Below, one piece after another: positions 44,878 through 53,221 of a DNA stretch of 64,000 nucleotides. The notes beneath the pieces are model-generated. The model had not been told where the DNA came from. It saw only the letters and a list, made by a program, of their open reading frames with translations, and ran no database searches. A program made the translations under genes and the position numbers. Source of the DNA: Patescibacteria group bacterium (GTDB lineage: Bacteria > Patescibacteriota > Patescibacteriia > 2-12-FULL-57-11); assembly GCA_004297205.1 (NCBI GenBank), contig SCUL01000002.1, positions 594,893 through 658,892 of the forward strand. Reading direction: 5' to 3'. Position 1 is the stretch's first letter. Each line of letters starts with the position of its first letter.

Positions 44878-45993
44878 ATGAAACGTCTTCTCAAAGGATC
44901 CATCGTCGCGCTCGCGCTCTCCGTCGCCCTGCCGGCGTTTGCCGCCGACAATACCAAACCCGTCGTCGGCGCGCCGTCTCCGGATACCGCCGTCGTCGGC
45001 GCCGCCGTGAGCATCGCGGCCAGCGTCAACGACGCGGACTCGGGCATTGCCAACTGCAGCTTGTACATCGAATTTTTGAACGTCGGCGCCATGAACGTCT
45101 CCGGCGGCATCGCCAGCAAGACGTACGTCTTTGCCGAGCCGGGCGTGTACACCGTGTTCGTCTTCTGCAGGGACGTCGCCGGCAACTTTGCTTCCGGACC
45201 GAACACCTCGGTCCTCGTCAGCTTCGCGTCGGGAGGAGGAGGCGCCGTCCCGCTGTCCGTCGGAGCGATCGCTCCGACGTCCGCGACCGCCGGCATCTCC
45301 CTGACGTTGAGCGCGTCGGTGAGCAGTGCTCTGTTCAGCTGCACCCTCGTCGTCGAGGGGACGCAGCGGGGGGCGATGACGGTCTCCGCTGGTACGGCCA
45401 GCGTTTCGTATACCTTCGAGAACCCCGGCAGCTACGCCGTCCGCGCGCAGTGCGCCACGGTCGGCGGCACCATTGCCGACGGTCAGAGCACCGTCGTCTT
45501 GGTGGCGGCTCAGGTGGCGCCGTCCTTCGGTTCGCGCCTGATCAAGCTGGCCTGCCCGCCGAACGCCGCCGCTTTCGATTCTTGCCGCTCGGTCTATTAC
45601 CAGGGCGTCGACGGCAAACGCCACGCGTTTCCGAGCGACAAGGTGTACTTCAGCTGGTACGAGAATTTTGAGGGCATCCAGACCGTCGACGGCACCGCGC
45701 TGGCCGGGATTCCGCTGGGCACGAACGTCACCTACCGTCCGGGAGTGAAACTCGTGAAATTCGAAAGCGTCAGCAAGGTCTATGCCGTTTCCCGCGGTGG
45801 CGTCTTGCGGTGGATCACCAGCGAATCAGCCGCTCGCGAAGTGTACGGCAGCGATTGGGGCACGAAGGTCAACGACATCTCCGATGCATTCTTTGGGAAT
45901 TATTCCTTCGGTGCGGACATCACCGGGGCCAACGATTACTCGCCCGCGGCCGAGACGTCGGCCACGGCGACGATCGACGCCAACATCCGGTAA
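44878..45993 (+). CDS. Secreted protein: signal peptide + two Ig-like repeats + C-terminal ~135-aa conserved domain (paralogue A)
   Basis: Signal peptide MKRLLKGSIVALALSVALPAFAAD. C-terminal block RLIKLACP...YYQGVDGKRHAFPSDKVYFSWY...NVTYRPGVKLVKFESVSKVYAV...NYSFGADI is shared with 47987..49282 and 52346..53221. Confidence 0.7.
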   Translation: MKRLLKGSIVALALSVALPAFAADNTKPVVGAPSPDTAVVGAAVSIAASVNDADSGIANCSLYIEFLNVGAMNVSGGIASKTYVFAEPGVYTVFVFCRDVAGNFASGPNTSVLVSFASGGGGAVPLSVGAIAPTSATAGISLTLSASVSSALFSCTLVVEGTQRGAMTVSAGTASVSYTFENPGSYAVRAQCATVGGTIADGQSTVVLVAAQVAPSFGSRLIKLACPPNAAAFDSCRSVYYQGVDGKRHAFPSDKVYFSWYENFEGIQTVDGTALAGIPLGTNVTYRPGVKLVKFESVSKVYAVSRGGVLRWITSESAAREVYGSDWGTKVNDISDAFFGNYSFGADITGANDYSPAAETSATATIDANIR

Positions 45994-47986: not shown

Positions 47987-49282
47987 CTATTTTTTCTTGA
48001 AGAGAATGGCGTTCGGGACGTGCCGCCCCGGGCCGGCCTTGTATCCGTTGTCGTACCACAGTGCGGCGCTGCCGCCGCCGTCCAGGTTGAGCGCATTCGT
48101 TGCGCCGAGCTCCTGCATGACGGAGGCCAGGTCCGTGACGGTGGCCTGGTGCGCCACGACGAGGAAGAAGGAGCGGTCGTTCATGCCGATGGCGGCACGC
48201 ACGCCGCTGACCGTCGGGTTGGTTTCGCTCAACCGCTCTTCGCTCTCCACGACGATCACGCCGTCTTCGACGAGCGAGGGATAGTTGGCGAGCGCCGCCG
48301 CGAGTCGCGCCCCGTGCGCGGCCTCGAAGGCCGAGACCGAGCTGCCGAAATCGGCGGTGCGGTGGAAGAAGAAGGTGCGGCCGTCCTCCGCGGCGGCGAG
48401 CATCGGGCCTTTGTGGACGACGAGGCTCGAAGCGTTGCGCATCACCCGGGCGGCGCTGTTGAAGACCGGCGAGAGGAAGGTGTTGCTCTTGCCGGCGCAG
48501 TCCGGATATTCGGCCGGGCAGAAATAGGTGCCGTTGATGCCGACGGTTGCGCCGTTGTCCGTTGCATAGTCGGCAAGCAGGCGTACGGCGCAGCCGTTGT
48601 TGCATTCCGACGTGTCGGCCGTGTCGGTGATCATGGCGAAGCGGCTTTTTTGCAGCGTGACCACCTCAACGTCGAAGCTGCCGCGCGCCGTTGCCACCGT
48701 CCGTGAGGCGAAGGTGCTCTCCAGGGTGGCCTCGATGGTCGGCGCGGCCGCGAGTTCGGCGGCCCGGTCGTAGTCCGCCGCGGCCGTGATGTCGGCCCCG
48801 AAGCGGTAGTTCGAGAAAAGAACGTCGGCGATGTCTTTGACTTGGCTGCTCCAGCCGGATCCGAACGAGGCCGCCGCCAATGCTTCGCTCGTCATCCAGC
48901 GCAGTTCGCCGCCGCCCGCGACCGCATAGACCTTGCTGACGCTTTCGAATTTCACGAGCGTCGTGCCCGGGCGGTAGGTGACGTTGTCGCCGAGCGGGAT
49001 CGCCGCGAGCGCGGCCGCGGTCACGATTTGGATGTTCAAGAAATCCGGATACCAGCTGAAGTAGACCGTGTCGCTCGGGAAGGCATGGCGTCGTCCGTCG
49101 CCGCCGACGTAGTAGACGGATTTGCAGACATGCGTCGGACCGGCGCCGGTCGGACAGGCAAGTTTGACGCGCTGTCCCGTTGCGACGGCCGCATCCGCTC
49201 CCGTGGGAAAAAGGACGAGCGCGATCGCGACGCCGACGAGCCACAGAGGGAGGTGAACTCGGTCCATGGGCCTATGGTACAC
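47987..49282 (-). CDS. Secreted phosphodiester glycosidase-family protein with an N-terminal copy of the shared ~135-aa domain (paralogue B)
   Basis: Signal/TM, then the RVKLACP...YYVGGDGRRHAFPSDTVYFSWY...NVTYRPGTTLVKFESVSKVYAV...NYRFGADI block. C-terminal NAGPA/DUF2233-like core (GINGTYF...LNLDGGGSAALWYDNGYKAG). Confidence 0.75.
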   Translation of the reverse strand: MYHRPMDRVHLPLWLVGVAIALVLFPTGADAAVATGQRVKLACPTGAGPTHVCKSVYYVGGDGRRHAFPSDTVYFSWYPDFLNIQIVTAAALAAIPLGDNVTYRPGTTLVKFESVSKVYAVAGGGELRWMTSEALAAASFGSGWSSQVKDIADVLFSNYRFGADITAAADYDRAAELAAAPTIEATLESTFASRTVATARGSFDVEVVTLQKSRFAMITDTADTSECNNGCAVRLLADYATDNGATVGINGTYFCPAEYPDCAGKSNTFLSPVFNSAARVMRNASSLVVHKGPMLAAAEDGRTFFFHRTADFGSSVSAFEAAHGARLAAALANYPSLVEDGVIVVESEERLSETNPTVSGVRAAIGMNDRSFFLVVAHQATVTDLASVMQELGATNALNLDGGGSAALWYDNGYKAGPGRHVPNAILFKKK

Positions 49283-49319
49283 TGTTCATGATCCCCTTTC
49301 ACGCTTTCCGCGGACATCT

Positions 49320-50330
49320 ATGCGCACGCCGTTCATCAGGGAACGCGACGGATTCCAGATGCTTGTCATCGTCCTGTTTCTCGCATTTTTGGCGGCCGTG
49401 GGCGGCGGCGTTTTTCTCTCGTTGCGCACGCCGCCGGGACAAGCACCCGCCCGTTGCACGCAGGAAGCCAAGCTTTGTCCGGACGGCAGCGCCGTTGGGC
49501 GGACGGGTCCGAACTGCGCATTCGCGCCGTGTCCGCCGACGGCCACCACCACGCCGCCGGGACCGGAACCCGTGTACTGCACGCTCGAAGCGAAACAGTG
49601 CCCGGACGGGAGCTACGTCGGCCGCGTGCCTCCGAGCTGCGAGTTTGCGCCGTGTCCGCTCACGGTCAACGGCAACGTGCCCCCGGCGGCCTGCAAAAAC
49701 CAGTGCGGCAACGGGCAGTGCGAGGAGATCGTCTGCCTGGCGGTCGGCTGTCCGTGCGCCGAGACGCCCGCATCCTGTCCGCAGGACTGCGCGCAACCGC
49801 AACCGCGGGAGTGCCGCTCCTATGCGAGTTGTCAGGACGGCCAGGCTTGTCCGGCAGGGACCGAATGCAGCGGACTGCCCGCCTATGGGTGCTATCCGCC
49901 CGGCTGCCCGACGCCGATCTGCTTGGCGGCCGCGACGAACATCGCCACGCCCTCCGGTCAGGTGAACGTCCAGAAGCTGATGGTCGGCACGAAGGTCTGG
50001 TCGCTCGATGCGCAGGGGAAGAAAATCGTGAGCACCATCGTTCGTGTCGGACGGACGCCGGCGCCAAAAAACCACCGCGTCGTCCGCCTGATGCTGTCTG
50101 ACGGGCGTGAGGTCCGGGTGTCGCCCGACCACCCCACCGCGAACGGACAGCCCGTCTCGAAGCTGCAGGTCGGCGCATTCTATGACGGCGCCCGCGTGAC
50201 CTCGGCCGATCTCGTTCCCTACGGCGAAGCGGCGACCTACGATCTGCTGCCCGACAGCGCCTCAGGAGCCTACTGGGCCGACGGCATTCTTCTGGGCAGT
50301 ACGCTTTCCGCGTCCTCCATTGGCCAATAA
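49320..50330 (+). CDS. Membrane-anchored Cys-rich repeat protein with a C-terminal Hint (Hedgehog/intein-like, BIL-type) domain
   Basis: N-terminal TM. Two C..EAK.CPDGS.VGR..P.C.FAPCP repeats plus further Cys-rich segments. The C-terminus ICLAAATNIATPSG...VSPDHPT...YDLL...YWADGILLGS matches Hint blocks A and B (Cys nucleophile, TxxH). Confidence 0.65.
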   Translation: MRTPFIRERDGFQMLVIVLFLAFLAAVGGGVFLSLRTPPGQAPARCTQEAKLCPDGSAVGRTGPNCAFAPCPPTATTTPPGPEPVYCTLEAKQCPDGSYVGRVPPSCEFAPCPLTVNGNVPPAACKNQCGNGQCEEIVCLAVGCPCAETPASCPQDCAQPQPRECRSYASCQDGQACPAGTECSGLPAYGCYPPGCPTPICLAAATNIATPSGQVNVQKLMVGTKVWSLDAQGKKIVSTIVRVGRTPAPKNHRVVRLMLSDGREVRVSPDHPTANGQPVSKLQVGAFYDGARVTSADLVPYGEAATYDLLPDSASGAYWADGILLGSTLSASSIGQ

Positions 50331-50349: not shown

Positions 50350-50787
50350 ATGGACACCGCTCCGTCCGGTACGCCGGAGAGGCCGCAAACGCCGCCCATG
50401 CCGCAAGTCAGCGGCTCGCTCAAGCAGGAACAGCTGCAGACGAACCGCATCAAGCCGTTGTACCGGGGAACGCAGATCATCTGGTACGTCGTCGCCGTCA
50501 TCGAGATCCTGCTGGCATTCCGGTTCGTGCTCAAGCTGTTCGCCGCCAATCCGGAGGCTGGCTTCACGCGCTTCATCGACGGCGCCACCTGGCTGTTCGC
50601 CGGACCCTTCATGATTCTGTTCCGGGTCACGCCCGTCGTCGCCGGCAGCGTCTTTGAATGGTCGACGCTCTTTGCGATGTTCGTCTACCTCGTCGCCGGC
50701 TGGCTGATCGTTAAAGCGCTGGTCATGATGAAGCCGGTTTCGACCAAGGAGGCCGACACGAAGCTGCCGGAGCAGGAGAAGCTCTGA
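50350..50787 (+). CDS. YggT-like integral membrane protein
   Basis: IIWYVVAVIEILLAFRFVLKLF...GFTRFI pattern resembling the YggT/Ycf19 family; several TM helices. Confidence 0.45.
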   Translation: MDTAPSGTPERPQTPPMPQVSGSLKQEQLQTNRIKPLYRGTQIIWYVVAVIEILLAFRFVLKLFAANPEAGFTRFIDGATWLFAGPFMILFRVTPVVAGSVFEWSTLFAMFVYLVAGWLIVKALVMMKPVSTKEADTKLPEQEKL

Positions 50788-50792
50788 CGGCC

Positions 50793-51338
50793 ATGGCAAA
50801 GGATACGGCGACTGCGGTCTTCGGCGGCGGGTGCTTCTGGTGCACGGAAGCGATCTTCAACGAACTGCGCGGCGTCACGTCCGTCATCTCCGGTTATGCC
50901 GGAGGAAAGAAAGATGATCCCACCTACGATCAGGTGAGCATGGGGAACACCGGACACGCCGAGGTGGTGCAGGTGGCGTTTGATCCGGCTGTGATTTCCT
51001 ACGACACGCTGCTCGAGGTGTTCTTTGCGACGCACGACCCGACGACCATGAACCGCCAAGGCGGGGATGTCGGCACGCAGTACCGTTCCGTGATTTTTAC
51101 GACGAACGACGCGCAGGCCGCCGCGGCGCGTGCCTATATCGCGAAGCTCGAAGCGGGGGAGCATGCCGGGAAGAACATCGTGACTGAGATTTTACCGCTC
51201 GTTCGTTTCTCCACGGCCGAGGAATATCACCAGAAATATTTCGAGAAGAACGCCGACAGCAACCCGTACTGCTCGGTGGTCATCGTGCCGAAGCTCAAGA
51301 AGCTGCGGGAGAAGTTTGCGCCGTTGCTGAAGGGCTGA
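50793..51338 (+). CDS. msrA: Peptide methionine sulfoxide reductase MsrA
   Basis: GGGCFWCTEA active-site motif and GYAGG. Confidence 0.9.
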   Translation: MAKDTATAVFGGGCFWCTEAIFNELRGVTSVISGYAGGKKDDPTYDQVSMGNTGHAEVVQVAFDPAVISYDTLLEVFFATHDPTTMNRQGGDVGTQYRSVIFTTNDAQAAAARAYIAKLEAGEHAGKNIVTEILPLVRFSTAEEYHQKYFEKNADSNPYCSVVIVPKLKKLREKFAPLLKG

Positions 51339-51435
51339 GCGAACACCCGGGCGCCCCCCACGGGCGCCATTGACGTTCCGCGGTTTTTCGACTACGGTCT
51401 GCGCGCCACACCAACTAAGAGAAAGGGGTGGTGAC

Positions 51436-52345: not shown

Positions 52346-53221
52346 ATGCGCACTTCCTTTCTCGCCCGTGCGGCCGCCGCCGCTTGGGTGGTCGGTCTGC
52401 TCTTGTCCGCGCCGCCTCCGGCTCTTGCCGGCGATTGTTTTTCGGATCCGGTCTACGAGCGCAACGAGGGCGCCACGGTCACGACCGGTGCGCGCGTCCG
52501 CGACGTGGCCTGCATGGAAGGCTCGGTCGTGAAGACGACGCTCGCGGTCGGCACGCGCGTCACGATCATCGCCGAGACCGACGGCTGGTACAAGGTGCGG
52601 ACGACCGCGGGGCTGGAAGGCTGGGTCGGCCAGTGGCTGCTCTCGGTGGGCGGCGAACCGCCCGCCCTGACGGTTCCTCCGACCTCGCTTGAGGGTTCGG
52701 CAGGGCCCGCCGCCTCCCCGACGGCGACCGCACCGCCGGTCACGAATGTCCAGCCGCTGCCGACGGCCGGGCTGATCCGCGGCGTCTCGACGCGCGCCGT
52801 GTACCTCCTGCACAACGGCAAGCGTTACGCCTTCCCGACGGAACGCGTGTACCTCAGCTGGTACGCCAATTTCAACGCCGTCGTCGTGGTCTCGGACGCG
52901 GATCTGGCCACCGTGCCTTTGGCCGGCAACGTCACCTACCGCCCCGGTATCCGTCTCGTGAAGCTCCAGACCGACAACCGCGTCTTCGCCGTCGGCCGTT
53001 ACGGCGTGCTGCGCCACATCGCCAGCGAAGTGGCGGCGCGTGAACTGTACGGCGATGTTTGGGCGACGTTCGTCGACGACATCCTCGACATCAGCTTCGG
53101 CAATTACCTCGAGGGCGCAGACATCAGCTCTTCGTCAGATTTCGACCGCACCACGGAAAGTGAGATCAATGAACCGGCGGAAAACATCCGACCGGAGGGC
53201 TTCGACGACACCTCGATGTAA
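52346..53221 (+). CDS. Secreted SH3b-domain protein with a C-terminal copy of the shared ~135-aa domain (paralogue C)
   Basis: Signal peptide. SH3_3-like GATVTTGARVRDVACMEGSVVKTTLAVGTRVTIIAETDGWYKVRTTAGLEGWVGQWLL. C-terminal AVYLLHNGKRYAFPTERVYLSWY...NVTYRPGIRLVKL...FGNYLEGADI. Confidence 0.7.
   Translation: MRTSFLARAAAAAWVVGLLLSAPPPALAGDCFSDPVYERNEGATVTTGARVRDVACMEGSVVKTTLAVGTRVTIIAETDGWYKVRTTAGLEGWVGQWLLSVGGEPPALTVPPTSLEGSAGPAASPTATAPPVTNVQPLPTAGLIRGVSTRAVYLLHNGKRYAFPTERVYLSWYANFNAVVVVSDADLATVPLAGNVTYRPGIRLVKLQTDNRVFAVGRYGVLRHIASEVAARELYGDVWATFVDDILDISFGNYLEGADISSSSDFDRTTESEINEPAENIRPEGFDDTSM

Follow-up and report, generated by a model that had tools for sequence, protein, structure and literature searches.

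Hint domains are known so far from inteins, from Hedgehog proteins and from a few bacterial intein-like groups. Among the bacterial intein-like (BIL) domains, type B is described as having no similarity to intein block G (PMC4031507, summarising Amitai et al. 2003), and BIL domains are described as lacking a nucleophile at position +1 (PMC4031507). The cyclisation of an asparagine is the sole known route to C-terminal cleavage (PMC4031507). In the BIL2 domain of Tetrahymena, the amine of a lysine resolves the Hint thioester, which results in the ligation of the N-terminal domain (PMC8616854). Here we consider a gene of a Patescibacteria group bacterium, which represents a very large family of Hint proteins and lies on the forward strand of a stretch of 64,000 nucleotides (positions 594,893 to 658,892 of contig SCUL01000002.1, GenBank assembly GCA_004297205.1; this whole stretch is referred to as the window).

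The best explanation of the product of this gene (336 residues) is a type II (N-in, C-out) membrane-anchored extracytoplasmic pro-protein, in which a disulfide-rich ectodomain is followed by a C-terminal Hint domain. We consider it fairly probable that this domain catalyses a Hedgehog-style autoprocessing, restricted to its N-terminal junction, through a thioester formed between Ile200 and Cys201. An earlier reading of the DNA by a model that saw the sequence alone (the original prediction) had proposed a Cys-rich, membrane-anchored protein ending in a Hint domain.

Homology and fold of the C-terminal domain

Judging from its sequence and from a structural model, the C-terminal region of about 127 residues is a complete Hint fold and belongs to the HINT superfamily. 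Two matches exceed their cut-offs: Pfam Hint_2 (30.4 bits, gathering cut-off 28.4), of which positions 1–87 of 147 are covered, and the NCBIfam model of the N-terminal splicing region of inteins (TIGR01445, intein_Nterm; 24.8 bits, cut-off 24.5). Both are marginal, and each covers the N-terminal half only. When the single sequence was used as a phmmer query against the PDB, only sub-threshold matches were obtained. A profile of the Hint family matches the Cat consensus intein (6dsl_B) with E = 6.3e-7, from block B through blocks F and G; in this alignment SpgH lies over SDNH, and YDLLP...YWANGIL over YDLLNVGEDNLYYTNGIV. The terminal strand pattern noticed in the original prediction (YDLL...YWADGILLGS) therefore aligns with intein blocks F and G.

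The AlphaFold2 model, computed from an alignment of 120 sequences (A1), has a predicted local distance difference test (pLDDT) score of 95–98 over residues 201–330. Compared to the PDB with Foldseek, the model gives 63 matches at E <= 1e-3, and the 50 listed are all inteins, BIL domains or hedgehog. The Foldseek probability is 1.0, and the target-normalised TM-score is 0.75–0.78 for the gp41-1 and MchDnaB inteins and the BIL domain of C. thermocellum; it is 0.68 for hedgehog (1at0).

The C-terminal Hint domain of the original prediction is upheld by the two matches above cut-off and by this high-confidence fold, and the profile searches recover Hint homology through Hint_2, TIGR01445 and the 6dsl_B match. 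Of the families that it had named for the search, PF07591 (PT-HINT) has no match at E <= 1, and PF01079 (Hint/hedgehog) scores 12.3 bits (E = 0.13), below its cut-off of 29.7. The Intein_splicing model of Pfam, with 13.4 bits, is also below its cut-off (35.8). The identity of the domain is not itself new, since some members of the family are labelled "Hint domain-containing protein" at NCBI.

Catalytic residues and the C-terminal end

The conservation of the catalytic residues was assessed in A1, whose sequences are 39–62% identical to the query, and in a wider set of 264 sequences. Cys201, which had been claimed as the nucleophile at the domain boundary, aligns to intein Cys1 and is present in 120/120 and 264/264 sequences, respectively. 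The block B that had been read as a TxxH block (VSPDHPT) is real and invariant, Ser268 and His271 being each found in all 120 sequences, but its sequence here is SPDH, i.e. the SxxH form in which a serine replaces the threonine; it aligns with SDNH of the Cat intein and with TPAH of hedgehog. Block F contributes Asp308 (119/120), which aligns with YDLL of the Cat intein. Since Cys1, the S-x-x-H of block B and the aspartate of block F are conserved, all the residues of the first step of the intein and Hedgehog reactions are kept. Invariant residues in A1 are C191, P199, C201, L202, I208, H252, R263, S268, H271, T306 and Y318, and I200 is present in 119 of the 120 sequences.

The other end of the domain has lost its catalytic pair. 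In a register that is based on the alignment with the Cat intein, together with the Ssp DnaB intein and hedgehog sequences, Gly326 stands at the position of the penultimate histidine of inteins (where the family has G, Q, D or K), Ser327 at that of the C-terminal asparagine (117/120) and Thr328 at +1 (119/120); it is followed by Leu329 (119/120). The protein stops 9 residues past Ser327. The cyclisation of an asparagine is unavailable, Gly-Ser standing where inteins have His-Asn, and, as there is no C-extein either, the sequence rules out C-terminal cleavage and splicing by the predicted Hint domain.

The same anatomy bears on the idea that the domain is a true intein, capable of splicing, or a PT-HINT module from which a C-terminal toxin would be released. 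Its resemblance in sequence to blocks A, B, F and G of inteins and the threonine at +1 agree with it, but we give it next to no credence: Ser327 is followed by 9 residues only, with no C-extein or toxin domain, the His-Asn pair is missing, the Hint domain does not interrupt a conserved host protein, and the PF07591 and Intein_splicing searches failed as described above. We consider that both candidates are refuted by the absence of His-Asn, of a C-extein and of any downstream domain.

The N-terminal anchor and the Cys-rich ectodomain

The N-terminal transmembrane (TM) helix claimed in the original prediction is supported by a Kyte–Doolittle maximum over residues 11–34 (hydropathy up to 2.5 in a 19-residue window) and by a helix at residues 11–33 of the AlphaFold2 model. 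The duplicated modules that it described (CxxEAKxCPDGSxVGRxxPxCxFAPCP, 27 residues each, referred to as CPDGS modules) are likewise both detected by a hidden Markov model (HMM) of the module; they are separated by Pro/Thr-rich linkers. In the AlphaFold2 model the first copy is a beta-hairpin with a pLDDT of about 90, and the second has a pLDDT of about 92. HMM scans of the six-frame translation revealed no further CPDGS module and no second Hint domain in the window. The coordinates of these and other features are collected in Table 1.

The two modules are followed by an eight-Cys block, which also exists in two relatives (P0003 and P0004) and over which the pLDDT is below 50, and by a six-Cys block, which is one among several alternative pre-Hint blocks across the family. 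The protein contains 23 cysteines rather than the 30 or so that had been announced: 22 upstream of the Hint domain (4 + 4 + 8 + 6), and the Hint Cys1.

Table 1. Features of the Hint gene, its product and its neighbourhood; positions are those of the window, and residues are numbered from the start at ATG 49320.
Feature	Position	Strand	Residues or size	Remarks
Hint gene	49320..50330	+	336 aa plus stop	NCBI and Logan gene models agree on the start
TM helix, predicted signal anchor	49356..49418	+	~13–33	preceded by R2, R7 and R9
CPDGS four-Cys module, copy 1, CTQEAKLCPDGSAVGRTGPNCAFAPCP	49455..49535	+	46–72	module HMM, E = 2.6e-18
CPDGS four-Cys module, copy 2, CTLEAKQCPDGSYVGRVPPSCEFAPCP	49578..49658	+	87–113	module HMM, E = 3.1e-17
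Eight-Cys block, CKNQCGNGQCEEIVCLAVGCPCAETPASCPQDC	49692..49790	+	125–157	from sequence
Six-Cys pre-Hint block, CRSYASC...GLPAYGCYPPGCPTPI	49812..49919	+	165–200	ends at the predicted scissile Ile200
Hint domain	49920..50300	+	201–327 (~127 aa)	Pfam Hint_2, TIGR01445, AlphaFold2, Foldseek
Cys201 (Hint Cys1), in ICLAAATNIATPSG	49920..49922	+	201	predicted nucleophile of the N-S acyl shift; invariant
Block B, S-P-D-H	50121..50132	+	268–271	SxxH form of TxxH; S268 and H271 each 120/120
Asp308, block F, in T-Y-D-L-L-P	50241..50243	+	308	119/120; aligns with YDLL of the Cat intein
S327-T328-L329	50298..50306	+	327–329	Ser where inteins have their C-terminal Asn, Thr at +1
Tail SASSIGQ and stop	50307..50330	+	7 residues	no C-extein
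Shared 133-aa domain, copy 1	45556-45954	+
Shared 133-aa domain, copy 2	48755-49153	-
Shared 133-aa domain, copy 3	52760-53158	+
YggT-like membrane protein	50350-50787	+	145 aa	20-nt gap past the Hint gene
msrA	50793-51338	+		6-nt gap past the YggT-like gene

One or two copies of the CPDGS module are also present, without a Hint domain, in about 900 small (75–126 residues) lipoproteins or TM-anchored proteins (P0266–P0385 among them), some of which come from Myxococcota (Nannocystis, Labilithrix). The consensus of the module is C-x6-CPDGS-x-VGR-x-GP-x-C-x-F-x-x-CP. The existence of these stand-alone proteins suggests that the CPDGS cargo can work without a Hint domain, which we count in favor of the proposed pro-protein. 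Some CPDGS proteins carry a precomputed Pfam tag, PF27023.1, that is absent from the Pfam scans run here.

A large family with a conserved layout

More than 2,573 relatives were obtained by a word-indexed search. When only the Hint region was used as the query of an exhaustive HMMER search, 1,477 clusters (at 50% identity) matched at E <= 1e-3, at least 1,165 of them at E <= 1e-10. Among the best 150 the Hint domain is nearly always at the extreme C-terminus, in proteins of 146–993 residues. Across 264 members, the commonest junction is P-I-C-L. About 250 of these 264 proteins end in xSTL, with 0–5 residues after STL in 226 out of 261; the few longer tails resemble read-through. An N-terminal anchor is present in 227 of the 251 full-length members (a TM or signal segment in 185, a lipobox in 42). 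The layout of the family is therefore an N-terminal anchor, a variable extracytoplasmic cargo and a terminal Hint domain ending in xSTL.

The cargo itself is highly variable, and includes one to five CPDGS modules, Gmad2 Ig-like domains, dockerin, an FGE-sulfatase domain and other Cys-rich blocks. Several of these domains (Gmad2, dockerin, FGE-sulfatase) are of extracellular types, which we take as a sequence-based argument in favor of an extracytoplasmic, anchored product. The members come from Patescibacteria and from metagenome-assembled genomes (MAGs) labelled Chloroflexota and Dormiibacterota; source annotation is absent for most of the relatives listed. Members from MAGs labelled Limnocylindria/Chloroflexota and Dormiibacterota have, in place of the Cys-rich modules, a cargo that consists of a lipobox and a helical "YCDPD" domain, while a different, Cys-containing cargo is found in a MAG labelled Acidobacteriota. 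It is the same Hint subfamily (CPICL...GSTL) that is present in these MAGs, which have a high GC content and are labelled Limnocylindria/Chloroflexota, Dormiibacterota and Acidobacteriota (L008–L016, GTDB contigs, with the binning as labelled). Literature searches for Hint domains in Patescibacteria or the candidate phyla radiation found no paper. As far as the sequences tell, these proteins are best seen as a Hint subfamily of their own, which is terminal and N-cleavage-only.

Parity of the cysteines and the cysteine near the junction

Of the 227 anchored members, 211 have an even number of ectodomain cysteines ahead of Cys1, for counts that range from 2 to 28, and this pattern spans unrelated cargo architectures. 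Since the upstream cysteines are even in number, all of them can pair with one another, which leaves Cys1 as a lone unpaired thiol. In an oxidising compartment, a cysteine that acts as a catalytic nucleophile would have to be free in this way, and we regard this as supporting the proposed autoprocessing.

Most members have a second cysteine close to the junction: it is at position -3 in 216 of the 264 sequences, and somewhere between -1 and -6 in 239. The junction reads CPIC in most of them and CPTPIC here, where Cys196 is at -5. It could be that this cysteine forms a disulfide with Cys1 and blocks the acyl shift until reducing conditions are met, as in the CPGC "redox trap" engineered in a DnaE intein. 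The junction cysteine is indeed kept even in the low-Cys versions from Limnocylindria and Dormiibacterota, the protein is located in an oxidising compartment, and the precursor of the redox-trap intein (3nzm) is among the structural neighbours found with Foldseek. On the contrary, the even number of upstream cysteines lets the junction cysteine pair with a cysteine of the cargo, Cys1 remaining unpaired, and the 25 members (out of 264) that have no cysteine within 6 residues of Cys1 keep all the catalytic residues. Redox gating by the junction cysteine therefore appears improbable to us, and the parity led us to down-weight it as the main model.

Proposed mechanism

The fold of the domain, its homology, the conservation of its catalytic residues, the architecture of the proteins and the parity of their cysteines are established; we infer from them that cleavage takes place, and what may become of the thioester. 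In the mechanism that we favor, the protein would first be exported by means of its N-terminal signal anchor, and the cargo would fold oxidatively. Then the free Cys201 would attack the carbonyl of Ile200 and an N-S acyl shift would produce the thioester, with the assistance of Ser268 and His271 (block B) and of Asp308 (block F). Water or another nucleophile would resolve the thioester, and the Hint domain (about 14 kDa) would separate, while the cargo would stay anchored to the surface, with a new or modified C-terminus. The outcome of the cleavage would be the loss of Hint or the activation of the C-terminus, and not the secretion of the cargo, because the cargo keeps its N-terminal anchor. 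It is on this point that the original prediction, which proposed the autoproteolytic release or ligation of the upstream polypeptide, has to be amended: the interpretation as a Hint domain is supported, but the release of the upstream module is unlikely, considering that the anchor is kept in 227 of 251 relatives.

The Hint domain might also be catalytically inert, the surface proteins ending in a module whose role is in structure, folding or binding. This would fit the loss of the C-terminal His-Asn pair and the Pfam scores, which are at or below threshold for many members. However, the residues that would form the thioester are strictly conserved (Cys1 264/264, SxxH 120/120, Asp 119/120) despite sequence identities of 45–60%, and Cys1 is systematically left without a disulfide partner, so that we hold an inert domain for a very improbable option, even slightly more so than redox gating.

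A more serious competitor, which we nevertheless regard as unlikely, is that the protein is a self-contained ligase: instead of being hydrolysed, the Hint thioester would be captured by a specific amine or hydroxyl, to which the C-terminus of the membrane-anchored cargo would thereby be covalently attached. The acceptor could be a peptidoglycan stem peptide, an S-layer or pilus protein, a lipid or a molecule of the surface of a host cell, and the chemistry could be likened to the acyl-enzyme of sortase, to the cholesteroylation of Hedgehog or to the formation of isopeptide bonds mediated by BIL2. The main argument in its favor is that the cargo is already anchored, so that plain cleavage would free nothing but the Hint domain, which looks costly for a domain found in more than 1,000 clusters. 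There are precedents: BIL2 of Tetrahymena moves its N-extein to lysines (PMC8616854), and both BIL2 (6tmm, 6y75) and Hedgehog (1at0) are structural neighbours of the domain. Genes related to the cell envelope (sortase, NAGPA, M23 peptidase, polysaccharide deacetylase, PG_binding_1) lie near some homologues. The members occur in Patescibacteria, Chloroflexota and Dormiibacterota, which are lineages with a single membrane. On the other hand, there is no adduct-recognition region past the Hint domain, whose tail is limited to 0–5 residues, and no partner gene is conserved across the nine loci that we compared. In a narrower version, to which we give somewhat less credit still, the domain would act as a single-use, built-in "sortase", whose thioester would be captured by an amine or a hydroxyl of the wall, of the S-layer or of the host surface to form a covalent tether. 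The analogy with sortase is our own.

Several observations weigh against the Hedgehog-style cleavage that we prefer. The Pfam match is marginal and stops at profile position 87 of 147, and neither experimental evidence of cleavage for any member of the family nor a paper on these proteins was found. The binomial probability of the cysteine parity (p = 1e-44) is overstated, related sequences being treated as independent. The cysteine near the junction (at -3, or at -5 here), which exists in 82–90% of the members, could gate Cys1 through a disulfide. It is important to note that the near-invariance of S327, T328 and L329 is not accounted for by a model in which only N-terminal cleavage occurs, and that H252, R263, T306 and Y318 are invariant without having been assigned a role.

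Comparison with known Hint systems

By its functional logic, the family would work most like the Hedgehog/Hog autoprocessing domain. The order of the parts is the same (an export signal, a variable extracytoplasmic cargo and the Hint domain), Cys1 and the T/SxxH block are kept, and the absence of a C-terminal asparagine implies that the chemistry is restricted to the N-terminal junction, in an oxidising compartment. The differences are that the Patescibacteria family has no sterol/adduct-recognition region (SRR) past the Hint domain and retains its N-terminal anchor, that its junction is P-I-C-L here instead of G-C-F in hedgehog, and that its C-terminal strands are closer to intein blocks F and G than to hedgehog. 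We rejected membership of the Hedgehog family as such, because the SRR is missing and PF01079 does not reach its threshold.

With the BIL domains the family shares the occurrence of a bacterial Hint domain in secreted or surface proteins of variable composition, and a cleavage, predicted in the family, that is uncoupled from splicing; Hint_2 is its best Pfam model, and the BIL structure 2lwy (target-normalised TM-score 0.78) is among its best structural matches. However, type A BIL domains end with His-Asn, whereas these proteins end with Gly-Ser. The lack of His-Asn, of a downstream variable or toxin domain and of a PF07591 match led us to reject membership of type A BIL or PT-HINT. Type B was compared by its description: contrary to what is described, the family keeps a motif similar to blocks F and G (YDLLP...YWANGILLGS). 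A threonine is found at +1 in 119 of 120 sequences, unlike in BIL domains, and the Hint domain is at the extreme C-terminus, with no C-flank to cleave. The type B BIL/Hint_2 class thus seems to fit only partly, the C-terminal half of the domain being aligned with intein blocks F and G.

The class 1 mini-inteins (gp41-1, DnaB, DnaE; Cat, 6dsl) provide the best fold matches (E ~2e-8) and the best profile match, and blocks A, B and F are conserved between them and the family. They differ from it in that there is here no C-extein, no insertion in a host protein and no His-Asn, which makes splicing impossible. Last, BIL2 of the Tetrahymena BUBL protein (6tmm, 6y75) has the Hint fold too, but it is eukaryotic and cytosolic, it is flanked by ubiquitin-like domains, it has a C-terminal asparagine and it is only 10–11% identical to the query.

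Significance

Patescibacteria are believed to live on other cells, to which they attach. The family suggests that surface proteins follow a Hedgehog-like layout in Patescibacteria as well as in bacteria that have been assigned to Chloroflexota and Dormiibacterota, and a conserved device that makes a reactive thioester at the end of many surface domains would be a plausible tool for their maturation or covalent attachment. The interest of the family would be greater if the thioester proved to be used for attachment: a covalent tether would be a new mode of attachment of surface proteins across Patescibacteria, Chloroflexota and Dormiibacterota, from membrane to wall or from cell to host. If the Hint domain only sheds itself as a pro-domain, the family is a modest addition to the Hint catalogue. 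A compact, natural, extracytoplasmic Hint domain predicted to cleave at its N-terminal side only may be of interest for protein engineering, for example in the production of C-terminal thioesters.

Gene model and genomic context

The identical sequence at NCBI is the hypothetical protein EPO33_04570 (P0001), from Patescibacteria. The open reading frame (ORF) extends from 49266 to 50330 on the forward strand, and its upstream ATG at 49266 would yield a protein of 354 residues; ATG 49320 is the start both in the NCBI model and in an independent gene call on the Logan contig. There is no convincing Shine–Dalgarno sequence at either start, 49266 or 49320. A CCATGG palindrome (49262–49268) provides an ATG on each strand, which are alternative starts for the Hint ORF (49266, +) and for the divergent NAGPA gene (49267, -); as the annotated starts are 49320 and GTG 49282, respectively, both 5' ends are uncertain. 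The GC content around the Hint gene (0.64–0.67) matches that of the surroundings.

As the original prediction stated, the Hint gene lies between two of three secreted paralogues, which have in common a domain of about 133 residues (43–64% identity); all three copies were mapped around it, and no Pfam model matches this domain. The first protein (ORF 44878-45993) has weak Ig-like/PKD matches, below the Pfam cut-offs; in the second (47987-49282) the domain is fused to an NAGPA phosphodiester glycosidase, and in the third (52346-53221) to a bacterial SH3 domain (SH3b). In a scan for promoter and terminator consensus sequences, the intervals that separate the Hint gene, the YggT-like gene and msrA contained neither a promoter-like site nor a terminator. 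The arrangement is compatible with a single predicted operon ending near 51378, where the first terminator-like site is found.

The functional link that had been suggested between the genes of this locus is weakly supported. Proteins encoded next to Hint homologues in L004 and L019, two closely related contigs, are 66–69% identical to the YggT-like protein, and L019 has a counterpart of the NAGPA protein with 58% identity, but the order of the genes differs among the window and these two loci, and the neighbours of six other homologues are unrelated. No partner gene is kept across the nine homologue loci (L001–L007, L019–L022), in which Peptidase_C39_2 is seen twice, MsrA twice and sortase once. 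In our reading, this context reflects a synteny that is local and shared by relatives, linked to the cell envelope in a loose way at most, and not a dedicated system. The two Peptidase_C39_2 genes are at most 3 kb away from Hint homologues (L004, 5206-5946, -; L006, 8889-9638, +). The sortase gene, a single instance (L020, 4226-4963, +), is located 38 bp upstream of the Hint homologue P0053 (5001-5795), on the same strand.

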